IMG/VR virus record: IMGVR_UViG_3300045988_151382
Source: a virus
Taxonomy: Duplodnaviria > Heunggongvirae > Uroviricota > Caudoviricetes
Strand: one strand, 5' to 3'
DNA length: 48,925 bases
The position numbers were made by a program, and so were the translations under genes. The notes under the pieces were generated by a model. It had not been told where the DNA came from. It saw nothing but the letters and a program-made list of their open reading frames with translations, and searched no databases. Positions 3,987-48,836 of this stretch are shown piece after piece (the stretch's first letter is position 1; each line of letters opens with the position of its first letter).

Positions 3987-4988
3987 TTAATACCCATTAA
4001 TTACTCTTCGGACATCAATCGAGGTGGTATAACCACTAGTCCCAATTGAATGCACAGCTTTCGATATAAGATATTTTCCAGAAAATGAACCGAATCCCTC
4101 CAGATTTATAGTTACACCAGCTACCAATCTGGTGTCTCCAACCAATACTAAAGATCCGGTATTTTGATATCTATTTTTAAGCCGCAAAGCAGCCTTTGCC
4201 TTACGTTTTGCTTCATCTAAATTAGCTACCAGTTTTCTTATCTTAAGATTCGACCCTTCTTCTACGGATGGATCTACCCAAGTATACGAAAGCGACTTTC
4301 TTTTTTTAGGTACGCGATATTTGCACGTGCAACTTTTATACAAATCTGTAGATTGTGTGCTAAAGCTATATCTGATTATCTCATCAATACCTAACGTAAG
4401 CGTAGCGATAGGATCTTTTTGCTCAAACATCTCTTGAGCAAATATTATTAATTGGCTATCAGTGACCTTTAACGACAACCCTTCATCCTGGCAAAGTCGA
4501 TGGAGAAATTTTAAATCGCTTTCCTCCATTTGATCTTCACGCGCATAATATGGATTACTATCACCATCAATAAGAAACAACAGTTCAAGGTTAGCTAATT
4601 TAGCTATAGAAGTTGCTATATCTTTAAGAGTTGTTTTTTCCCATGCATTACTTTTTAAATCACGTCTAATGCCTGATGAAACAGGAACAGAAACAGCAGT
4701 TACCTCAACCACAGAAGGTGGTCCAGAGCAAGTTATGCCATCTACCTGGAATTTCCCGCACTCAAGGACGATTTGATTTATAGGCTTAAAGCTCAAATCA
4801 ATAAAATCACCCTTTTTAGGTGTCCAGTCTCCAGACCATTTCCCATCATCATTTTTTAATATAATAGAAATATCATCGACCTGACCATCTTCATTATCTG
4901 TATAAGACATTGACAAAACATCAGGTGACATATGAGCGGTAATATTTACATTCTGATATATAACATCAAAAAGCGTTTTACGTAACAC
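3987..4988 (-). CDS. Tail protein D-like (late control D family)
   Basis: 333 aa ORF directly downstream of tape measure and X-like gene, as in P2 T-U/X-D order. Confidence 0.55.
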   Translation of the reverse strand: MLRKTLFDVIYQNVNITAHMSPDVLSMSYTDNEDGQVDDISIILKNDDGKWSGDWTPKKGDFIDLSFKPINQIVLECGKFQVDGITCSGPPSVVEVTAVSVPVSSGIRRDLKSNAWEKTTLKDIATSIAKLANLELLFLIDGDSNPYYAREDQMEESDLKFLHRLCQDEGLSLKVTDSQLIIFAQEMFEQKDPIATLTLGIDEIIRYSFSTQSTDLYKSCTCKYRVPKKRKSLSYTWVDPSVEEGSNLKIRKLVANLDEAKRKAKAALRLKNRYQNTGSLVLVGDTRLVAGVTINLEGFGSFSGKYLISKAVHSIGTSGYTTSIDVRRVINGY

Positions 4989-25449: not shown

Positions 25450-25525
25450 TGGTGGCCCCTACCGGATTTGAACCGATGACCGTGCGATTATGAGTCGCCT
25501 GCTCTAACCACTGAGCTAAGGGGCC
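25450..25525 (-). tRNA. tRNA with CAU anticodon (Met or Ile2/lysidine type), CCA encoded
   Basis: Minus-strand sequence GGCCCCTTAGCTCAGTGGTTAGAGCAGGCGACTCATAATCGC...GGTTCAAATCC...AGGGGCCACCA; 7-bp acceptor stem, D-loop AGCTCAGTGGTTAGAGC, T-loop TTCAAAT. Confidence 0.8.
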
Positions 25526-35645: not shown

Positions 35646-36308
35646 ATGAAAAGCAACGACGAGAACATCAAGAAAGAAATAGGTCTGCGCATTCAGACTC
35701 TACGGAAACAATCCGGCATGACTGCCGGAGATCTCCAGCAAGTCACTGGAATAGGCTTAAGCACCTTGCAGAACTATGAGGCCGGATTAAGACAACCATC
35801 TATACCTGCCATCAAGAAAATCGCGCACGCCCTGAAAGCATCAGCGCCTTATATCGCGTGCTTAACAGATAACCCGTTCCCACCCCAGAATACTAACGCT
35901 CCTGTTATTCCTGGGCTTGTAGCTATAAAAAATGACATAGCATCGCACGCCGGAGAAAAGCCAGTGCTGGCGATAGAACAGGAGATTCTACGAAGCAAGA
36001 ACATCAACCCATCGTCTCTGTCTGTTCTCCAGAGCAACGATGAGCTAAAGCTAATGTCACCAACAATATCCCCTGGCTCCCAAGTCCTGATTAATACAGA
36101 CGATACAGAGGTTCATGAGGGGATCTATGCCCTTGAAGACAGAAATGGCCTGGTTGTTTTGAGGCACTGTAGAGTCATACCGGGTGACAATGCTGTTATG
36201 CTGTCAACCGAAAGGGATGCTGAAATAAACACTAAGCATCTGAATAACGAGGAATTTAAGCGTTATAAAGTTCTTGGCCGCGTAGTTAGTGTTGTCAACT
36301 GGTTATGA
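35646..36308 (+). CDS. CI-like repressor (HTH_XRE N-terminus, LexA/S24-like C-terminal domain)
   Basis: 220 aa; N-terminal IGLRIQTLRKQSGMTAGDLQQVTGIGLSTLQNYEAG HTH; C-terminal beta-rich domain. Confidence 0.7.
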   Translation: MKSNDENIKKEIGLRIQTLRKQSGMTAGDLQQVTGIGLSTLQNYEAGLRQPSIPAIKKIAHALKASAPYIACLTDNPFPPQNTNAPVIPGLVAIKNDIASHAGEKPVLAIEQEILRSKNINPSSLSVLQSNDELKLMSPTISPGSQVLINTDDTEVHEGIYALEDRNGLVVLRHCRVIPGDNAVMLSTERDAEINTKHLNNEEFKRYKVLGRVVSVVNWL

Positions 36309-36905: not shown

Positions 36906-36925
36906 AACACATGGAGTCTCGACAA

Positions 36926-37579
36926 ATGACTATATCTGTAGGTATTTTCAACGGAAAAGGCGGCGTAACCAAATCAACCATTGCTCGTGCTTTAGCAGTT
37001 GCTTATGCAAAGGCTGGCTGGAATGTATGCCTGATCGATATGGATGTGCTTAACGGAACGGTAACGCGTTGGGTACAACGCAGAATGGCCAACAATATCG
37101 AACCTGCAATCGCGGCGCAGCCGTGCGGCACGCCATCACAAGTCCAGAAAATCATCGAATCAGAAGTATACGACCTGGTTATCGTTGATGGCGGTGCCTA
37201 CGCATCTGAATCAGTACCGAAGCTCTCTGAATTTCTGGATATGGTTATTTTGCCAACCAGATTCTCTACCGATGACCTGGAAACCACCGTTAACACAGCT
37301 CACGGCATCGTTAAAAAGGGTGTACCAATCAAGAAAATTTGCATGGTGTTTTCCGGCGCGGCTGAAAACGAAGCTGACTATATTGAAGCCCAAGAGTACC
37401 TGGCTAATACGCCATACTTTGTTGTCGATAAGTACATTCCCCACAAGCCAGCTCTGAGCAAAGCTCAGGATAAAGGCTTAAGCCTCATTGAGTGCTCATA
37501 CGTTGCGCCACGCAAAAAAGCAGACGACGTTATTCAGGGGATTATCAACCAGCTTGAGGCTCTGACTACTGCCGCGTAA
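36926..37579 (+). CDS. ParA-like partition ATPase (short type)
   Basis: Deviant Walker A GKGGVTKST near the N-terminus when started at 36926 (ORF track starts 36911). Confidence 0.7.
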   Translation: MTISVGIFNGKGGVTKSTIARALAVAYAKAGWNVCLIDMDVLNGTVTRWVQRRMANNIEPAIAAQPCGTPSQVQKIIESEVYDLVIVDGGAYASESVPKLSEFLDMVILPTRFSTDDLETTVNTAHGIVKKGVPIKKICMVFSGAAENEADYIEAQEYLANTPYFVVDKYIPHKPALSKAQDKGLSLIECSYVAPRKKADDVIQGIINQLEALTTAA

Positions 37580-38093: not shown

Positions 38094-38115
38094 AAAAAAG
38101 GCCCCCGAAGGGGCC
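38094..38115 (-). terminator. Rho-independent terminator (minus strand)
   Basis: Stem GGCCCC/GGGGCC with 4-nt loop followed by TTTTTT on the minus strand, just downstream of small ORF 38122..38244. Confidence 0.55.
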
Positions 38116-38121
38116 TAATCG

Positions 38122-38244
38122 CTACTTGCTGCTAATGTTTATCGTCACATTCAGAGCGTTATCAGTAATCTTCCAACCCTCTCCATGTGGCGTAAACAAA
38201 GCTCCAGTAACAACGATAAAAATACACATACAGTATTTTTTCAT
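38122..38244 (-). CDS. Small hydrophobic peptide (about 40 aa)
   Basis: MKKYCMCIFIVVTGALFTPHGEGWKITDNALNVTINISSK from internal Met of ORF 38122..38304; own terminator. Confidence 0.3.
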   Translation of the reverse strand: MKKYCMCIFIVVTGALFTPHGEGWKITDNALNVTINISSK

Positions 38245-38559
38245 TGTATGGCCCTTACAGGCCGTTTCACGGCATCCCCACCGACGAAAACAACGCGAGA
38301 GCAAGCACGGCTGCTTGTGCTTGCATGTACGGCAACGGAGAATCCTCCCCTAAAGTCGGTGCCCGGGTGCGAATCGGCGGGAAGGTCCACAGGTATTTTA
38401 CGATTATTTTAAGATTAGTAATAGGAAAGAAATTAAACGAAAAAACTCGTTTATTTTCACAAAATCAGTAACCTACCCACAATCTGTGAGTTTGCAGGCA
38501 CAACAAGAACCACAATTTTTTGAAGCATAATAGTGGACTATTATTACCTTTTGGGTAAA

Positions 38560-38840
38560 ATTAACTTGCTGCTTGTGCTTGCGTGGTTGTTTATACAACA
38601 ACGTAATGCTGAAAGGACCGCGAATCCGATCAGCACGAAAGAACCGTCCTCAATAGGGCGGTTTTTTTGTTTCTGCCTACCAATAAACCCACGCTATGTG
38701 GTTGTCTCTGTTAAAATCCCGCCGTATTGACATGAATGCGCCATTGGTGGACACTTTCCGAGCCGTAGCAAAATCTACGGTCGGGATTGGAACCCCGTAG
38801 ACACAATGGCGCATACCGCGTTAGCGGTTTTTTTATGCGT
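38560..38840 (+). ncRNA. Candidate regulatory RNA region upstream of the antirepressor operon; two intrinsic terminators
   Basis: Terminators at about 38644..38668 (ACCGTCCT/AGGGCGGT stem then T7) and 38815..38834 (ACCGC/GCGGT stem then T7); no ORF; repeated GATTGGAACC element. Confidence 0.45.
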
Positions 38841-39000
38841 AAAGCACTGCTACACCCAAATTATGGTGGGGCGTGCGGGGGAGTCGTAAGACTCGCCGGT
38901 TCGTCATTGTGTCCGGTAGTTCCAACCCTGCACGTCTCACCACCCAATGATTGGAACCTGACGGTGGTGAGTATCCTTAACCTTTAAGGGAATCATCACA

Positions 39001-39192
39001 ATGACAAACCTACCCCATGACTATTACGTCAACCTCGTAAAGATCCTTCTCAAGAAAGCCTCATACGCCGATAAATTCCGCCTGGCTGAAATCATCGAGC
39101 GCGAAGCTATGCGCATCGCCAGCAACGATAACGCTGTTTCTGTCGCAAAAATCTCCCTCGTAACCAAAGTAGTTATGGGAGGTGCAAAATGA
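39001..39192 (+). CDS. Small protein translationally coupled to antirepressor
   Basis: 63 aa ORF whose stop overlaps the ant ATG (ATGA). Confidence 0.4.
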   Translation: MTNLPHDYYVNLVKILLKKASYADKFRLAEIIEREAMRIASNDNAVSVAKISLVTKVVMGGAK

Positions 39193-40457
39193 AAACGCTT
39201 CCGACCGTTAACACCCTACAGCCTATCCTGCATAACCAAATCCCTGTCATTACTACCGAGTTACTGGCACAGCTTTACGGCGTATCTCCTGTACGCATTC
39301 GACAAAATCATCATGAGAATAAGGAACGCTTCATTGAAGGTAAGCACTACTTCAAAATTGAAGGTAACGAACTTCGAGAGTTAAAGCACAAAGTGACTCA
39401 AGATAATGATGTGAAGAACAAAAACTCTTTAAGAGATTCAGTTAATGACGCCCCCTCTAAAAGAGAGAGCGACGAGCACAGAGTAGTTTTAAACTACTCT
39501 GTTAACCACAAGGTAACTAAAAGTCACTCTGTGAAAATCGCCCGTAACGTTCGCTCCCTCATTCTCTGGACAGAACGCGGGGCTGCACGTCACGCTAAAA
39601 TGCTCGAAACCGATCAGGCATGGGATGTATTCGAACGGCTGGAAGACTGCTACTTCAACCAGAACGCGCAAACGGCCGCGACCGTAACCGTCTCACCAAA
39701 CAATGCTCGTGAGGTTGTCGATACGCTCAACGCTAAACCAATGTATTACGTTAAGGTGTGCAACAACGAGCCACTCACAACCTCAGCCGATGTTGCCCAA
39801 GCATTCAGCACCACAAACAATTCCATCGTTATGGCCATCGATGCGTTACGCATTCCTCGCACGGCTGCGGCGCGTCACTTCTTTAAAGAACAACGACCGC
39901 TGGAAGGAAGCGACCGCGAAATAACAATCTATCGCATGACAAAAGACGGATTTACCTTGCTCATGGAAAGTATCGACGGTCCAGGCGTGAAGGATATCAA
40001 GCTGGCCTACATTGAAGCCTTTAACGCTATCAGCAGCGTGTTAAAGGCAGAATACGAGCGAATGCTATACAACCGACTGTATCAGGAAACAAAGATTATC
40101 CGAACGGCAACAGAACATCATCGGCTATTAACGGAACCAAACTACCGCAAGACACTAATCAAAGAGTTTGACAAGGCGACGGAGAAAACTAAAGCGGCAC
40201 TAAATCTACCAACAATGACTAAAGATGATGTGATATCAGCCTTACTTCTTGATCTGCTCAGAAACGCCAGAGCACTTATCAGTTTTGACGAAAACCTGAA
40301 TCCTCAGCTCAAGCTACTACCACCGACAGGCAAAGTAGTCGACCAAGCAGATCACAACAGCATACTCAGCGTACTGGATGCAAACCTGCCAGCCAGGACA
40401 CTACAGGATCTGATAAAAACATGTGCTGATAAGCTGGCACAGAAAAGCAGACCATAA
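39189..40457 (+). CDS. Antirepressor (ORF6N/KilA-N-type N-terminal domain plus Ant-like C-terminal domain)
   Basis: 422 aa; N-terminal IPVITTELLAQLYGVSPVRIRQNHHENKERFIEGKHYFKIEG resembles ORF6N/Bro-N-type domains. Confidence 0.6.
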   Translation: MKTLPTVNTLQPILHNQIPVITTELLAQLYGVSPVRIRQNHHENKERFIEGKHYFKIEGNELRELKHKVTQDNDVKNKNSLRDSVNDAPSKRESDEHRVVLNYSVNHKVTKSHSVKIARNVRSLILWTERGAARHAKMLETDQAWDVFERLEDCYFNQNAQTAATVTVSPNNAREVVDTLNAKPMYYVKVCNNEPLTTSADVAQAFSTTNNSIVMAIDALRIPRTAAARHFFKEQRPLEGSDREITIYRMTKDGFTLLMESIDGPGVKDIKLAYIEAFNAISSVLKAEYERMLYNRLYQETKIIRTATEHHRLLTEPNYRKTLIKEFDKATEKTKAALNLPTMTKDDVISALLLDLLRNARALISFDENLNPQLKLLPPTGKVVDQADHNSILSVLDANLPARTLQDLIKTCADKLAQKSRP

Positions 40458-46847: not shown

Positions 46848-48836
46848 TATGCAAGCCTCACAATATAATTAAATGCGATGTTTTTAACGGTGTTTTCCGC
46901 GTTACCAGCAGCGTTAACGGTGATGGTGTGTCCATGTGAACCAATCTTAACAGAGTGCGTATGAGCGCCAATACCAACAGTGTGTGCATGTGCCCCAGCA
47001 CTTGTAGCGGTACCTGATACTGAGTGGGTATGTGCGCCAGAAGAAGGCACAGTTCCATTCCCCACCACCGTGCCACTTGATGAACCATCCAGCCAGTCGA
47101 AATTCATACCGCCACTGTTTGGTCTCCTTAATGGAACGGTATGAGTATGTGCGCCAGCACTATTTGCAGTACCAGATACATTGTGGGTATGTGCACCTGT
47201 GTTATTCGTTGATTTAGTACCGTAATCAAACGACGATGTGGTTTTCGTACCCAAATCCGTACTGGATGCGCTGGCACTGTGGGTGTGCGATTTAATGCCA
47301 TCCTGTTCCTGAGACAATACGGCCCGACCACTGGCGGGTTTGCCCTTGATTGTCCAGCCGCGCATATCTGGAATAACACCAGAAGGATAGGCAATAGCCA
47401 GTTTCGGATATGCTGCCTTATCAAACGTCTGCCCCTGCATGATTGCATAACCTGCAGGTGGCGTATCTGATGGCCACGGCAGCGGAACACCTGGCGGAAA
47501 CGCTTCAATATTTGCCGAGCCGTCAAATTTTACGCCGTTAATTGTCCTTGCCGTTTTCAGCTTTGTTGCTGTAGCAGCATTGCCGGATAGTTCGCCTGAA
47601 AGACCACCGCTGAATGTCTGTTTCGCCATCCATGTCTGAGCTTCGTCGATAATTGGCACACGTCTTGTCGTGATCGTGCGGCTTCCCGGATTTCCTGAAA
47701 TGCGAACCATAAAAAAGCGGTAGTTGGCTTTACTTACAGTGCTGCGCCATACATGCATTGAGCGTCCCGAACCAGAATCATCACTCGGACCGACTGAGAT
47801 GTTTATCAGGTTGCCATCAATGACGCCCCAGTCCATACCGTCGGGAATATTGGTCATGTTATCAAGCCGAACGGTTATCAGACTGCCCGGCACAAAATCG
47901 TAGGTCTGCCAGTCCAGGCTGGTGAGCTTTGCCACAGCACCGCCGATACCCAGATTCAGGGGAAGTGAATACGAGGTGTAGACTTCCCGCCATTCGCTCC
48001 ATGAGCTGCCGGTAAAGACGCGCTCAAAGGTGCGGCCTTTAAGGGTTGTACCTGTTCCGGCAGTTGTATAACGCTGCCATACATTAACACCATCAAACCG
48101 CCTCAACACTTCCAGAATGCCGAGTACAGTCACGCCGTTTCCGTCCAGTACTGGACCGTTGGTCGCTTTACCTGTAACGCTGTAAATACCTGGTGAGGTT
48201 ACATCATTCAAATCACCTTCGTAATAACGACTCTCTGACTGATGACCGACTCTTAACCACGGTTCCCACTGCGGATTTGATGCATCCCAGCTTGCCGCAA
48301 GACAGCGGACATACATATTTCCACGGCGAGTGGTATAACGTTGCGTTCTTCCATAATTTCCGCCTTCGAGGATCTCAAGCATCCCCTGAGCAAAGCCGCC
48401 TTCCTCTGGATAATTGCGTTCATATGAAGCTATAGCTGAGCTACTGTTACGCCATAAACCAAGATGCTCAGCGGCTCCAAGCGTATTCAGGTCTATAGTC
48501 GTACTCAAAGGGCGGGTAGCAGATTGAGTGTGACGCCATACGCCCCACGGACCATCAGTGCCATTCCACTTATTGGCGAGTTTACGCATGTATACATTGC
48601 CGTCTCTCGTGGTAAAGCGTTGCGTACCTGCAAAATGGCCGGCAGCAAAAACCTCAAGCACACCGACAGCATTATCTTCCGGGAAATTTTTCTCCAGTGT
48701 TGCGTTGGTGGATGTTGCTTTAGACCAGATACCTGAATAAGCCTTAACAGGACCAAACGTATTCAGATCAGCATCAAGCGGCATTTCGCCATTGTTTTTC
48801 ATAAACGTCAGGCTGGTAACGCCAACATTGTCCAGA
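46847..48836 (-). CDS. Tail fiber protein, C-terminal portion (continuation of 1..836 across the circular junction)
   Basis: ORF track 46847..48802 is the internal-Met part; frame stays open upstream through 48836 and joins position 1; C-terminus has repeated GAHTH(N/S/T)V His-rich motifs. Confidence 0.75.

Follow-up and report, generated by a model that had tools for sequence, protein, structure and literature searches.

A P1 immI-type RNA cassette very probably precedes an unrelated antirepressor gene in a plasmid prophage of E. coli and Yersinia

Introduction

What controls the antirepressor-type gene that follows the structured region at 38560-39192 of the window (the whole 48,925-nucleotide stretch of viral DNA analyzed here)? 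An earlier note listed two terminators, several hairpins, repeats and a small ORF translationally coupled to ant, and took them for a single RNA-based control region of ant. Each of these elements is present where it had been placed, but they fall into two unrelated modules, at 38094-38669 and 38688-40457. Module 1 is a ryfA/timP-type type I toxin-antitoxin system, composed of a minus-strand toxin mRNA and a divergent TimR-like sRNA. Module 2 is very probably a P1 immI-type antirepressor control cassette carried by a plasmid prophage of ~48 kb that occurs in E. coli and Yersinia. The type of RNA switch, C4 antisense RNA with decoy and target sites as in P1, has long been known, and this locus adds one more case.

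A toxin-antitoxin module adjoins the cassette

The minus strand at 38094-38390 matches the complete ryfA/timP-type Rfam model RF00126 (positions 1-296; 143.1 bits against a threshold of 80), and the terminator scan places the end of this toxin mRNA at 38116-38099, also on the minus strand. Inside the match lies a minus-strand ORF of 40 codons, MKKYCMCIFIVVTGALF... (38122-38244). It has no match to Pfam or PHROG families; its hydrophobic N-terminus fits the description of TimP (PMC7667032).

Divergent from the toxin mRNA, a promoter-like site found by the promoter scan (TGGACT-16-TAAAAT, 38534-38561, plus strand) implies a transcript start at ~38568. This is the first base of a 15-nt seed (38568-38582) exactly complementary to 38310-38324 in the toxin mRNA, or 18 of 19 nt with the flanks. 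The TimR-like antitoxin sRNA, assigned by seed, fold and arrangement, extends over 38568-38669 on the plus strand and folds with -43.5 kcal/mol (z = -5.9). It ends in terminator 1 (GAACCGTCCTC/GGGCGG followed by seven T; 38641-38668; -14.1 kcal/mol, z = -4.0). RNAduplex of the whole TimR-like RNA with the whole ryfA RNA is uninformative (-60.6 kcal/mol vs a shuffle mean of -60.8), so pairing is argued from the exact 5' seed and from the co-variation of that seed: in allele L124 a T-to-C change in the seed is present in both partners.

The region 38560-39000 could also be read as one structured ant leader, with a regulatory RNA of 70-150 nt arising between the two terminators. Both terminators do lie on the ant strand with no protein-coding gene between them, and the short ORFs within 38533-38987 match no PHROG family. 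Such a reading is nevertheless very improbable for four reasons: i) 38568-38669 carries a promoter-like site and a terminator of its own together with a 5' seed that is complementary to ryfA/timP, which is the published timPR layout (PMC7667032); ii) it is timP, and not the ant leader, with which the seed co-varies; iii) in Yersinia phage vB_YpM_39 a 681-bp insertion lies precisely between the two parts, at window 38674/38685; and iv) similarity to lambdoid and Stx prophages begins only at ~38768. Thus, of the two terminators, both are real, but terminator 1 ends the sRNA of the neighboring toxin-antitoxin system and is not part of a shared ant leader. Likewise the stretch ~38560-38670, claimed as ant control region, belongs to the TimR-like antitoxin of a timP/ryfA locus, as shown by the Rfam match, the seed, the insertion and the paired change in L124.

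By blastn against E. coli genomes, 73 of the 74 places matching the timPR-like module are on plasmids, where it is unannotated. It is a neighboring module and does not belong to the control of ant.

The cassette promoter and the IsrK / c4-a1b1 decoy RNA

The conserved part of the ant-control module opens with an operator-like palindrome, CCCACGCTATGTGGT (38688-38702), located just 3' of the vB_YpM_39 insertion point. The window has 8 copies of its motif, ACCAC-N5-GTGGT, vs 0.84 expected; other sites include 35492 and 35594, in the cI/cro-like intergenic region, and 36351. The motif came to light only on reading that intergenic region. The putative operator, 25 bp upstream of the -35 hexamer of the cassette promoter, resembles these sites beside the CI-like gene and may bind the repressor; the cassette promoter may be under CI control.

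The predicted cassette promoter was read from the sequence: TTGACA (38727-38732), a 17-bp spacer and GACACT (38750-38755), giving a plus-strand element at 38727-38755 and a transcript start at ~38762. The promoter scan did not call it because its -10 hexamer is weak. When the c4-a1b1 matches are aligned, its position is equivalent to that of the P1 promoter P1c4. A second upstream promoter was also considered, with TAAAAT at 38712-38717 and the operator-like site over its -35, as in P1 P2c4; it has no -35 match and was ruled out. A search for 10-mers of the promoter region that recur elsewhere in the window was uninformative apart from an inverted match related to b1.

From the predicted start onward, 38762-38834 (plus strand) matches the Rfam isrK model RF01394 over its full length (1-77 of 77; 67.7 bits vs 50, E = 2e-12). 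The c4-a1b1 model RF03163 reaches 38.8 bits at 38749-38801 (E = 5.5e-8), below its threshold of 46.7, but the stretch scores above threshold with the overlapping isrK model. In P1, too, isrK matches the a1b1 region (35 bits, E = 7e-6). Hairpin 1 of this RNA (38762-38781) is formed by CCGTAG/CTACGG at 38763-38780. Hairpin 2 displays box a1, TTGGAAC (38787-38793), which is part of the repeat GATTGGAACC found at 38785-38794 and again at 38949-38958; the complementary GTTCCAA is at 38919-38925. Box b1, ACACAATGGC (38800-38811), is complementary to box b' of C4. The RNA ends in terminator 2 (ACCGC-GTTA-GCGGT followed by seven T; 38815-38834, terminator scan). A terminator between b1 and C4 is present in 37 of 49 unique relatives. 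We infer both the use of the cassette promoter and the efficiency of termination within the cassette.

The C4 antisense RNA

Downstream of terminator 2, the plus strand at 38859-38947 matches the Rfam C4 model RF01695 from end to end (1-87 of 87; 77.8 bits vs 45, E = 1e-13). By homology to the P1 c4 boundaries the mature C4 is predicted at 38865-38944. Its minimum-energy fold (-46.1 kcal/mol, z = -6.2) consists of a long closing stem, two hairpins and a single-stranded joint; the 3' end reads CUCACCACC, of the CCACC type, and the tRNA-like closing stem ends in CACCACC. In P1 the c4 cut is made by RNase P, and by analogy release of mature C4 from the operon transcript by this enzyme is predicted here. 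Box b', GTCATTGTGT (38903-38912), occupies the loop of the second inner hairpin and pairs with b1 and with b2, CACAATGAC. Box a', GTTCCAA (38919-38925), is in the joint and pairs with TTGGAAC at 38787 and 38951. Taken together, isrK and C4 matches above curated thresholds, a C4 fold of this stability and co-varying boxes are far beyond chance. The exact b' allele is rare, since a scan of one genome per species contains none and viral contigs contain only three copies.

The idea that ant is under RNA control was therefore right, but the regulator itself had been missed. The earlier note put its deletion interval at 38560-38840; since C4 lies at 38859-38947, that deletion would take out the promoter and the a1b1/IsrK decoy, not C4 alone. 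The analogy drawn to P1 c4-icd-ant goes beyond analogy: the RNA part is homologous to immI, as judged by the Rfam C4 and isrK/c4-a1b1 matches and by the layout of the P1 record.

The analogy also drawn to P22 sar-ant did not hold. In P22, sar is a cis-antisense RNA read from the strand opposite to its target. Control of this type, by an opposite-strand RNA encoded in cis across the ant ribosome-binding region, shares with the present locus only the general theme of an RNA-controlled antirepressor. The isrK, C4 and c4-a1b1 matches are all on the plus strand, and a consensus scan of 38700-39400 shows no minus-strand promoter- or terminator-like site, hence no promoter-like site for an opposite-strand RNA across the ant leader; the regulator is on the same strand and upstream of its target. 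Sar-type control is scarcely credible here.

Target sites and competing hairpins in the leader

Both C4 boxes have a second complement downstream. Box a2, TTGGAAC (38951-38957, plus strand), is the complement of a', and box b2, CACAATGAC (38997-39005, plus strand), is a 9-nt exact complement of b' that covers the ATG at 39001. Pairing of a' with a2 alone is weak (7 bp, -9.8 kcal/mol).

Box a2 lies in the loop of an alternative plus-strand hairpin (38937-38970; -14.7 kcal/mol) formed by TCACCACC (38937-38944) and GGTGGTGA (38963-38970). This hairpin had been pointed out from the sequence, and it is real and co-varies across the 49 relatives: 82.7% of cells are paired vs 64.2% in shuffled and 32-48% in slid controls, and changes on both sides are seen at 12 of 12 pairs. 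It uses the C4 3' arm, TCACCACC, and cannot coexist with the lowest pairs of the C4 closing stem. In turn, GGTGGTGA is the 5' arm of a leader hairpin (38963-38999, plus strand; -14.3 kcal/mol, z = -2.5) that encloses the Shine-Dalgarno sequence AAGGGA (38986-38991). Allele L124 retains the leader hairpin with a different sequence (GTGATA...TATCAC).

The C4 3' arm might be a toggle between two conserved, co-varying helices, the C4 processing stem on the one hand and, on the other, the a2-displaying hairpin made with a segment ~18 nt further on, so that the 5' arm of the Shine-Dalgarno hairpin is freed or occupied. We put this forward tentatively, as a possibility that we regard as somewhat doubtful. 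If it were true, C4 maturation and target presentation or silencing would be mutually exclusive on any single read-through transcript, and the cassette would be a kinetic device that tells a newly arrived genome, in which no C4 is yet present, from an established lysogen. Combined with the terminated a1b1 decoy RNA that most relatives, including P1, have, such a toggle would call for a revision of the accepted view of c4 immunity as a two-component system. The co-varying alternative hairpin as such is a small addition to a long-known system.

The coupled genes and the CI-like repressor

Box b2 sits at the start of a 63-codon leader ORF (39001-39192, plus strand, from the ORF list) that matches phrog_7886, a family of unknown function, over its full length (E = 2e-46). 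The ORF has the position of P1 icd, but BLASTP gives no alignment with P1 Icd. It is followed by the antirepressor-type gene of 422 aa (39189-40457, plus strand), whose product contains Pfam ORF6N (1.3e-19) and Phage_pRha (4.2e-12), matches several PHROG families named anti-repressor, and has an N-terminal domain 55-57% identical to annotated Stx-phage antirepressors; BLASTP against P1 Ant1 finds no similarity (E = 0.22). Because neither protein is homologous to Icd or Ant1, membership in the P1 immI type is a matter of the RNA cassette, not of its cargo.

The stop of the 63-codon ORF and the start of ant overlap by 4 nt, ATGA (39189-39192), in the same form as P1 icd/ant1; for this 63-aa/422-aa pair translational coupling, which the earlier note had named, is predicted. 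The target of the antirepressor would presumably, by analogy, be the CI-like repressor, an HTH protein encoded at 35646-36308 in which Pfam finds no S24 peptidase domain even at E <= 10. Activity against this repressor is unproven, since there is no homology to P1 Icd or Ant1. Given the CI-like gene and the operator-like palindrome that precedes the cassette promoter, the earlier suggestion that CI is accompanied by a second layer of immunity is plausible.

Co-variation and natural specificity alleles

The relatives are 49 unique C4 loci from viral contigs. They sample only part of the C4 family because the collecting pattern fixes parts of C4. Across these loci the loop and joint sequences vary, and complements to them lie on both sides of C4, always in the same order. 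Cognate duplexes are more stable than non-cognate ones for loop-to-upstream (-12.4 vs -8.5 kcal/mol), loop-to-downstream (-14.1 vs -8.2 kcal/mol) and joint-to-upstream pairing (-14.3 vs -9.9 kcal/mol); the cognate advantage is small for joint-to-downstream (-9.6 vs -8.3). In most of the 49 a short ORF is overlapped by the next gene. The offset of b2 is +55 in the window vs +25 to +43 in most relatives, where b2 ends in GGA (the Shine-Dalgarno sequence) 7-13 nt ahead of the start codon.

Within the phage-plasmid family, three specificity alleles occur in sequences otherwise ~95% identical. In the E. coli plasmid JE86-ST02_p3, a1, a' and a2 are changed together (TTGGAAC to TTAGCCT; GTTCCAA to AGGCTAA). 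In vB_YpM_39, b', b1 and b2 are changed together (b' CATTGTG to CATGGTG, T38908G; b2 CACAATG to CACCATG, A39000C) and the ATG is kept. The three alleles predict which members of the family are heteroimmune at the second immunity layer.

The position of b2 also bears on attenuation of the P4/N15 type, in which pairing of C4 with b1 by the terminator, or with a2/b2, would promote termination and any translational block would be secondary. Box b1 (38800-38811) does abut terminator 2 (38815-38834), and it overlaps a competing hairpin reported by the scan at 38807-38823. This possibility is also brought up in the Gifsy-1 work, which describes IsrK as structurally homologous to P4 SeqA (PMC4825925), and in some cases a predicted terminator is overlapped by the 3' arm of C4 (Weinberg et al., PMC2864571). 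But b2 is exactly on the start codon and stays there in the Yersinia allele, which argues that translation is what is primarily targeted; b2 has the Shine-Dalgarno sequence at its end in most relatives, as noted above; and no T run follows the a2 hairpin in the window. Attenuation as the main mode of control is accordingly judged improbable.

A model for control of the antirepressor

RNA homology, box positions, co-variation of the boxes and the coupling overlap are established for this locus; the model outlined below adds to them processing, direction of regulation, polarity through Rho and the antirepressor's target, which are carried over from P1 and Gifsy-1. A single promoter (start ~38762) would give a transcript opening with the IsrK / c4-a1b1 element and its decoys, a1 and b1. 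Terminator 2, as a weak terminator, would stop most transcripts and leave an RNA of ~73 nt. On read-through, C4 would be cut out as an RNA of ~80 nt (38865-38944) with its tRNA-like closing stem. Its joint (a') and loop (b') would pair with a2 and b2 in the leader of the downstream message and would thereby block translation of the 63-codon ORF, b2 being over the start codon and the Shine-Dalgarno sequence already held in the leader hairpin. In P1, ant depends on the ORF ahead of it being translated, both for coupling and for protection from Rho. The antirepressor should be silent in the lysogen because, as in P1, ant would depend on translation of an ORF that C4 blocks. Copies of a1/b1, present in cis or supplied in trans as the short terminated RNA, would compete for C4 and relieve the block, as with IsrK of Gifsy-1. 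The supplement of PMC2864571 summarizes a competition model of this kind for c4 and a1b1.

Experiments on Gifsy-1 showed read-through of the IsrK terminator into a long RNA that is translationally silent and is activated by IsrK acting in trans; downstream of IsrK there is also a stable RNA that arises by processing, STnc1160 (PMC4825925). The authors explain regulation by IsrK and by an ORF overlapping the C4 region, not by repression by C4 in trans (PMC4825925). A positive switch of this type alone would have a silencing structure in cis, IsrK as the sole trans regulator (an activator) and no free C4 repressor. It would fit the more than 100-fold rise in anrP translation caused by IsrK in trans and the different effects of IsrK mutations in cis and in trans (PMC4825925), and the minimum-energy fold of 38762-39030, in which the a1/b1 region and the C4 loops pair with each other in cis. 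Several observations oppose it. The full P1-like C4 fold, including the tRNA-like closing stem ending in CACCACC, is retained, and a stable processed RNA does occur in Gifsy-1. The a2 and b2 boxes co-vary with C4 as strongly as a1 and b1 do, which is expected if C4 binds the leader. Finally, the counterpart of Gifsy-1 'orf45' is absent, since the ATG in the C4 5' arm opens just 8 codons. The positive switch alone is for these reasons quite improbable, and the P1-like model, with C4 as repressor and a1b1 as decoy, is preferred.

Significance and comparison with known systems

The analysis supplies an RNA annotation for an otherwise unannotated stretch of 1.3 kb in common plasmid prophages of E. 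coli and Yersinia, in which RefSeq and GenBank relatives list no RNA features. The C4 / a1b1 cassette that governs P1 immunity is found to be attached to unrelated antirepressor genes as well. By blastn, part of the cassette is present in ~2,200 of 5,426 complete E. coli genomes.

Module 1 resembles the enterobacterial timP/timR (ryfA) locus in its full-length ryfA match, small hydrophobic ORF and divergent, terminator-ended sRNA, which through its 5' end pairs with a site in the toxin 5'UTR located over 60 nt ahead of the start. Unlike chromosomal timP/timR, it is plasmid- or phage-borne.

The cassette shows the order and spacing of P1/P7 immI: promoter, a1-displaying hairpins, b1, terminator-like hairpin, C4, a2, b2, small ORF and ATGA overlap. 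In the P1 record a2 is at +4 after c4, b2 is over the icd ribosome-binding site, and icd and ant1 overlap by ATGA. The C4 and a1b1 elements are homologous to those of P1 by covariance model, and specificity alleles differ by coordinated box changes as in P1 and P7. Such changes, according to work by Citron and Schuster in 1990, are said to be the basis of P1/P7 heteroimmunity. There are also differences from P1: i) neither the small ORF nor the antirepressor resembles Icd or Ant1 in sequence; ii) b2 covers the ATG, not the Shine-Dalgarno sequence, and an extra leader hairpin lengthens the distance from a2 to b2; iii) a CI-like HTH protein takes the place of P1 C1 as primary repressor; and iv) the operator-like site is upstream of the -35 and does not overlap a promoter.

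Gifsy-1 isrK-orf45-anrP of Salmonella likewise has an isrK element with its own leaky terminator, a C4-type RNA and then a translationally coupled antirepressor-type gene. Its coupling ORF, orf45, starts inside the equivalent of the C4 5' arm, whereas here, as in P1, a separate 63-codon ORF lies downstream. In the published Gifsy-1 model IsrK is an activator and the downstream RNA is not treated as a c4 repressor; binding of IsrK to Hfq and its trans-activation of the read-through mRNA are known only from the Gifsy-1 experiments.

The CI RNA of P4 (seqA/seqC) and the CA RNA-antA system of N15 are, by description, also small RNAs processed from a leader, with complementary sites on both sides. 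They act mainly by premature termination of transcription, while the downstream target here is on a start codon. P22 sar-ant shares the principle of an antirepressor held off by a small RNA; unlike at P22 sar, the consensus scan gives no sign of an opposite-strand transcript unit, and it is with the P1 immI type that the cassette very probably belongs.

Two modules upstream of the antirepressor gene

An RNA cassette of the C4 / c4-a1b1 (IsrK) family precedes an antirepressor-type gene in this element, and a separate toxin-antitoxin locus lies next to it. The earlier note had read 38560-39192 as a single structured non-coding region leading into a coupled small-ORF/antirepressor pair. Each element it listed is present where it was placed: two terminators consisting of a hairpin and a T run (38641-68 and 38815-34), a CCGTAG/CTACGG hairpin (38763-80), TCACCACC at 38937-44 and GGTGGTGA at 38963-70, a GATTGGAACC repeat at 38785 and 38949 with GTTCCAA at 38919-25, and an ATGA overlap between a 63-codon ORF (39001-39192) and a 422-codon ORF, the antirepressor-type gene ant (39189-40457). 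Chance ORFs within the interval had no PHROG family matches. The single region itself is not borne out, since it comprises two modules. An Rfam scan of the whole window at gathering thresholds gave four matches: ryfA, isrK, C4 antisense RNA and, elsewhere, one tRNA. The tRNA gene lies inside the prophage (25453-25525, minus strand, 67 bits); its anticodon loop, CUCAUAA, implies the anticodon CAU.

Sequence comparison found E. coli plasmids of 47-50 kb with ~98% identity to the window over 18.9 kb. They encode tail fibres as well as RepA and ParA; the ParA gene of the window is at 36911-37579. Three Yersinia pestis phages, 49 kb each, also match. These plasmid and phage relatives argue that the element is a plasmid prophage.

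The timP/timR locus

The ryfA RNA (38390-38094, minus strand, 143 bits) carries a 40-codon ORF; it is timP, the mRNA for the toxin in a type I toxin-antitoxin pair. In timPR loci an opposite-strand sequence is located upstream of timP (PMC7667032), and 38568-38669 matches this rule exactly, which identifies it, at the sequence level, as a TimR-like antitoxin RNA. A promoter scan placed a promoter-like site at 38534-61 on the plus strand. The 5' seed of the RNA, GCTGCTTGTGCTTGC, repeats 38310-24 and is thus antisense to the minus-strand mRNA; in the diverged allele of E. coli plasmid JE86-ST02_p3, the same T-to-C change occurs in the seed and in its target. The segment folds into three stem-loops (z = -5.9), its 3' end being the terminator at 38641-68. 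In Yersinia phage vB_YpM_39, 681 additional bases lie between the equivalents of window positions 38674 and 38685, and similarity to lambdoid and Stx prophages begins only at about 38768. With the timPR features, these observations assign the first ~110 nt of the interval to a neighbouring locus.

The timP/timR locus at 38094-38669 is complete and borne on a plasmid prophage. Of 74 places matched by blastn in E. coli genomes, 73 are plasmid copies, and the copies form two allele groups (at least 95% and about 82% identity). RefSeq relatives have no annotated features there. The locus is probably a module for plasmid maintenance or stress. The vB_YpM_39 insertion (4150-4830 of that phage) falls exactly at the junction of the timPR module with the C4 cassette and holds a 540-bp minus-strand CDS of unknown function. 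The -35 of the TimR-like promoter is overlapped by a perfect palindrome, AATAGT-GG-ACTATT (38529-38542). Both diverged timPR alleles conserve this palindrome, while its flanks (140 nt on the 5' side and the 3' stretch to the TimR start) are nearly unalignable; it may be a protein-binding site governing the antitoxin. The TimR-like RNA (38574-38669) also resembles ColE1 RNAI weakly, below the model's threshold (26.7 bits vs 47, E = 0.016), most likely reflecting only a common shape of three stem-loops plus terminator.

The C4 cassette

A predicted plus-strand promoter, TTGACA-17-GACACT (38727-55), takes the position of P1c4 in phage P1. The isrK RNA follows (38762-38834, plus strand, 67.7 bits), with a first hairpin, a second hairpin displaying box a1 (TTGGAAC, 38787-93), box b1 (38800-11) and the terminator at 38815-34. 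The c4-a1b1 model aligns at 38749-38801 with 38.8 bits, under its threshold of 46.7. C4 antisense RNA lies at 38859-38947 (plus strand, 77.8 bits), whose second inner hairpin displays box b' (38903-12) in the loop and whose joint contains box a' (GTTCCAA, 38919-25). Homology with P1 c4 predicts a mature RNA spanning 38865-38944; this segment folds like the family consensus (-46.1 kcal/mol, z = -6.2). Downstream are box a2 (TTGGAAC, 38951-57) and box b2 (CACAATGAC, 38997-39005), the latter covering the ATG that opens the 63-codon ORF; the ATGA overlap then follows. In most relatives b2 lies on the Shine-Dalgarno sequence, whereas in the window it lies on the start codon with a longer a2-b2 spacing; a few other C4 loci likewise have an ATG within b2.

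Complementarity and specificity alleles

A search pattern constrained only in the hairpin stems and CAACCC was used to gather C4-like loci from viral contigs; removal of clear false positives from 88 candidates left 49 unique loop/joint combinations. Loop sequences are highly diverse, and some nine alleles of the joint occur. Almost every locus has two copies of the joint's reverse complement, one upstream and one 2-14 nt past C4. The loop complement is found ~16 nt past the upstream copy for the joint and a second time 25-43 nt past C4, where it usually ends GGA, 7-13 nt ahead of a start codon. Across the 49 combinations, cognate duplexes were more stable than non-cognate ones for loop-upstream (-12.4 vs -8.5 kcal/mol), loop-downstream (-14.1 vs -8.2) and joint-upstream pairing (-14.3 vs -9.9), with a small advantage for joint-downstream pairing (-9.6 vs -8.3).

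The cleanest support for functional complementarity comes from coordinated changes in the near-identical sequence of the phage-plasmid family. Boxes a1, a' and a2 are altered jointly in JE86-ST02_p3 and one viral contig: TTGGAAC becomes TTAGCCT twice and GTTCCAA becomes AGGCTAA. In vB_YpM_39, b' changes from CATTGTG to CATGGTG and b2 from CACAATG to CACCATG, preserving the ATG, and b1 is changed too. One family thus holds three natural C4 specificity alleles, with one a-box and one b-box swap, each coordinated at all three sites (window 38785-39005; JE86-ST02_p3, L125 and vB_YpM_39). These alleles predict heteroimmunity groups; alleles of the same kind separate P1 from P7.

An alternative hairpin overlapping the C4 stem

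The 3' strand of the C4 closing stem ends in TCACCACC. Some 17-21 nt past C4, the relatives, P1 included, have a segment that complements the 3' arm of C4 of the same locus, with a2 in the loop. Twelve specified pairs were scored in a MAFFT alignment of 49 sequences: they were formed in 82.7% of cells, vs 64.2% after shuffling and 32-48% after a shift of 1-3 columns, and all 12 showed changes on both sides (covariation score 0.52 vs 0.22). Coincidence was rejected as an explanation of the TCACCACC/GGTGGTGA hairpin, as the pairing is conserved and co-varies in relatives. The hairpin noticed earlier is therefore real, and its covariation and its overlap with the C4 3' arm mark it, on comparative grounds, as a conserved alternative structure that would compete with the base of the C4 stem. 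The account of Weinberg et al. mentions overlap of the C4 3' half with a predicted terminator hairpin 'in several cases' and at that point goes no further (PMC2864571). In the window, GGTGGTGA also serves as 5' arm in a second hairpin, within the leader (38963-99); this one contains the Shine-Dalgarno AAGGGA and stops at b2, and the JE86-ST02_p3 allele retains a hairpin at that place with other sequence.

Antirepressor and primary repressor

Two domains, ORF6N and Phage_pRha, are present in the 422-codon product, for which several PHROG antirepressor families give matches; over the N-terminal domain it shares 55-57% identity with Stx phage proteins annotated as antirepressors. The 63-codon product belongs to phrog_7886, of unknown function, which within the phage collection is confined to this phage family.

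A CI-like HTH repressor gene (35646-36308) matches PHROG 4, 'transcriptional repressor', over its full length, and Pfam HTH_3. The palindrome ACCAC-N5-GTGGT occurs eight times in the window (4708, 22524, 35492, 35594, 36351, 38688, 45273 and 48320) vs 0.84 expected, a nearly ten-fold over-representation. Sites cluster around the CI-like gene: the cI/cro-like intergenic region contains two, and a third comes just past the gene. A one-mismatch copy at 38688-38702, 25 bp upstream of the cassette -35, is operator-like and would link the cassette to the primary repressor. Pfam gave no S24 peptidase match in the CI-like protein even at E <= 10, so the repressor may be non-cleavable and depend on the antirepressor for induction. 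By eye, its usual Ser and Lys motifs look altered.

Proposed control and comparison with known systems

None of this is categorically new. The cassette belongs to a known family and is widespread: of 5,426 complete E. coli genomes, 2,199 give partial blastn matches. What the analysis adds is the correct annotation of the region, with the timPR module told apart from the ant cassette, as well as the three natural alleles and the covariation support for the hairpin overlapping the C4 stem.

In P1, C4 pairs with a2/b2 and blocks icd translation, thereby preventing ant expression. By analogy, C4 would here repress the 63-codon ORF and, via coupling, the antirepressor, and the terminated a1b1 RNA would serve as decoy and activator. 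The a1/b1 sites of P1 have been proposed as competitors for C4 (PMC2864571). In Gifsy-1, most transcription from the isrK promoter ends at the IsrK terminator, the read-through RNA is translationally silent and IsrK in trans activates it >100-fold; a stable processed RNA is found downstream of IsrK (PMC4825925).

The earlier comparison with P22 sar proved invalid for the ant cassette on a promoter/terminator scan. That with P1 stood for the RNA and failed for the proteins: the order of RNA elements is the same, but the products of the 63- and 422-codon ORFs are unrelated in sequence to Icd or Ant1. The immI region of the annotated P1 record reads promoters P2c4 and P1c4, a1, b1, c4, a2, b2, icd, ant1, with a2 four bases past c4, b2 on the icd ribosome-binding site and an ATGA overlap of the ant1 start with the icd stop. 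Rfam scores there are 68.8 bits for C4 and 51 bits for c4-a1b1. The P1 a1b1 region (48230-48311 of the P1 record; L122 18231-18312) also resembles the isrK model, below threshold (35 bits, E = 7e-6), and the match takes in a hairpin that resembles a terminator, T run included, between b1 and c4. P1 may thus also make a short IsrK-like RNA, a feature not annotated in the examined stretch of its record. The RNA cassette of the window would, by analogy, work like immI, and its organization fits the P1 and Gifsy-1 models combined.
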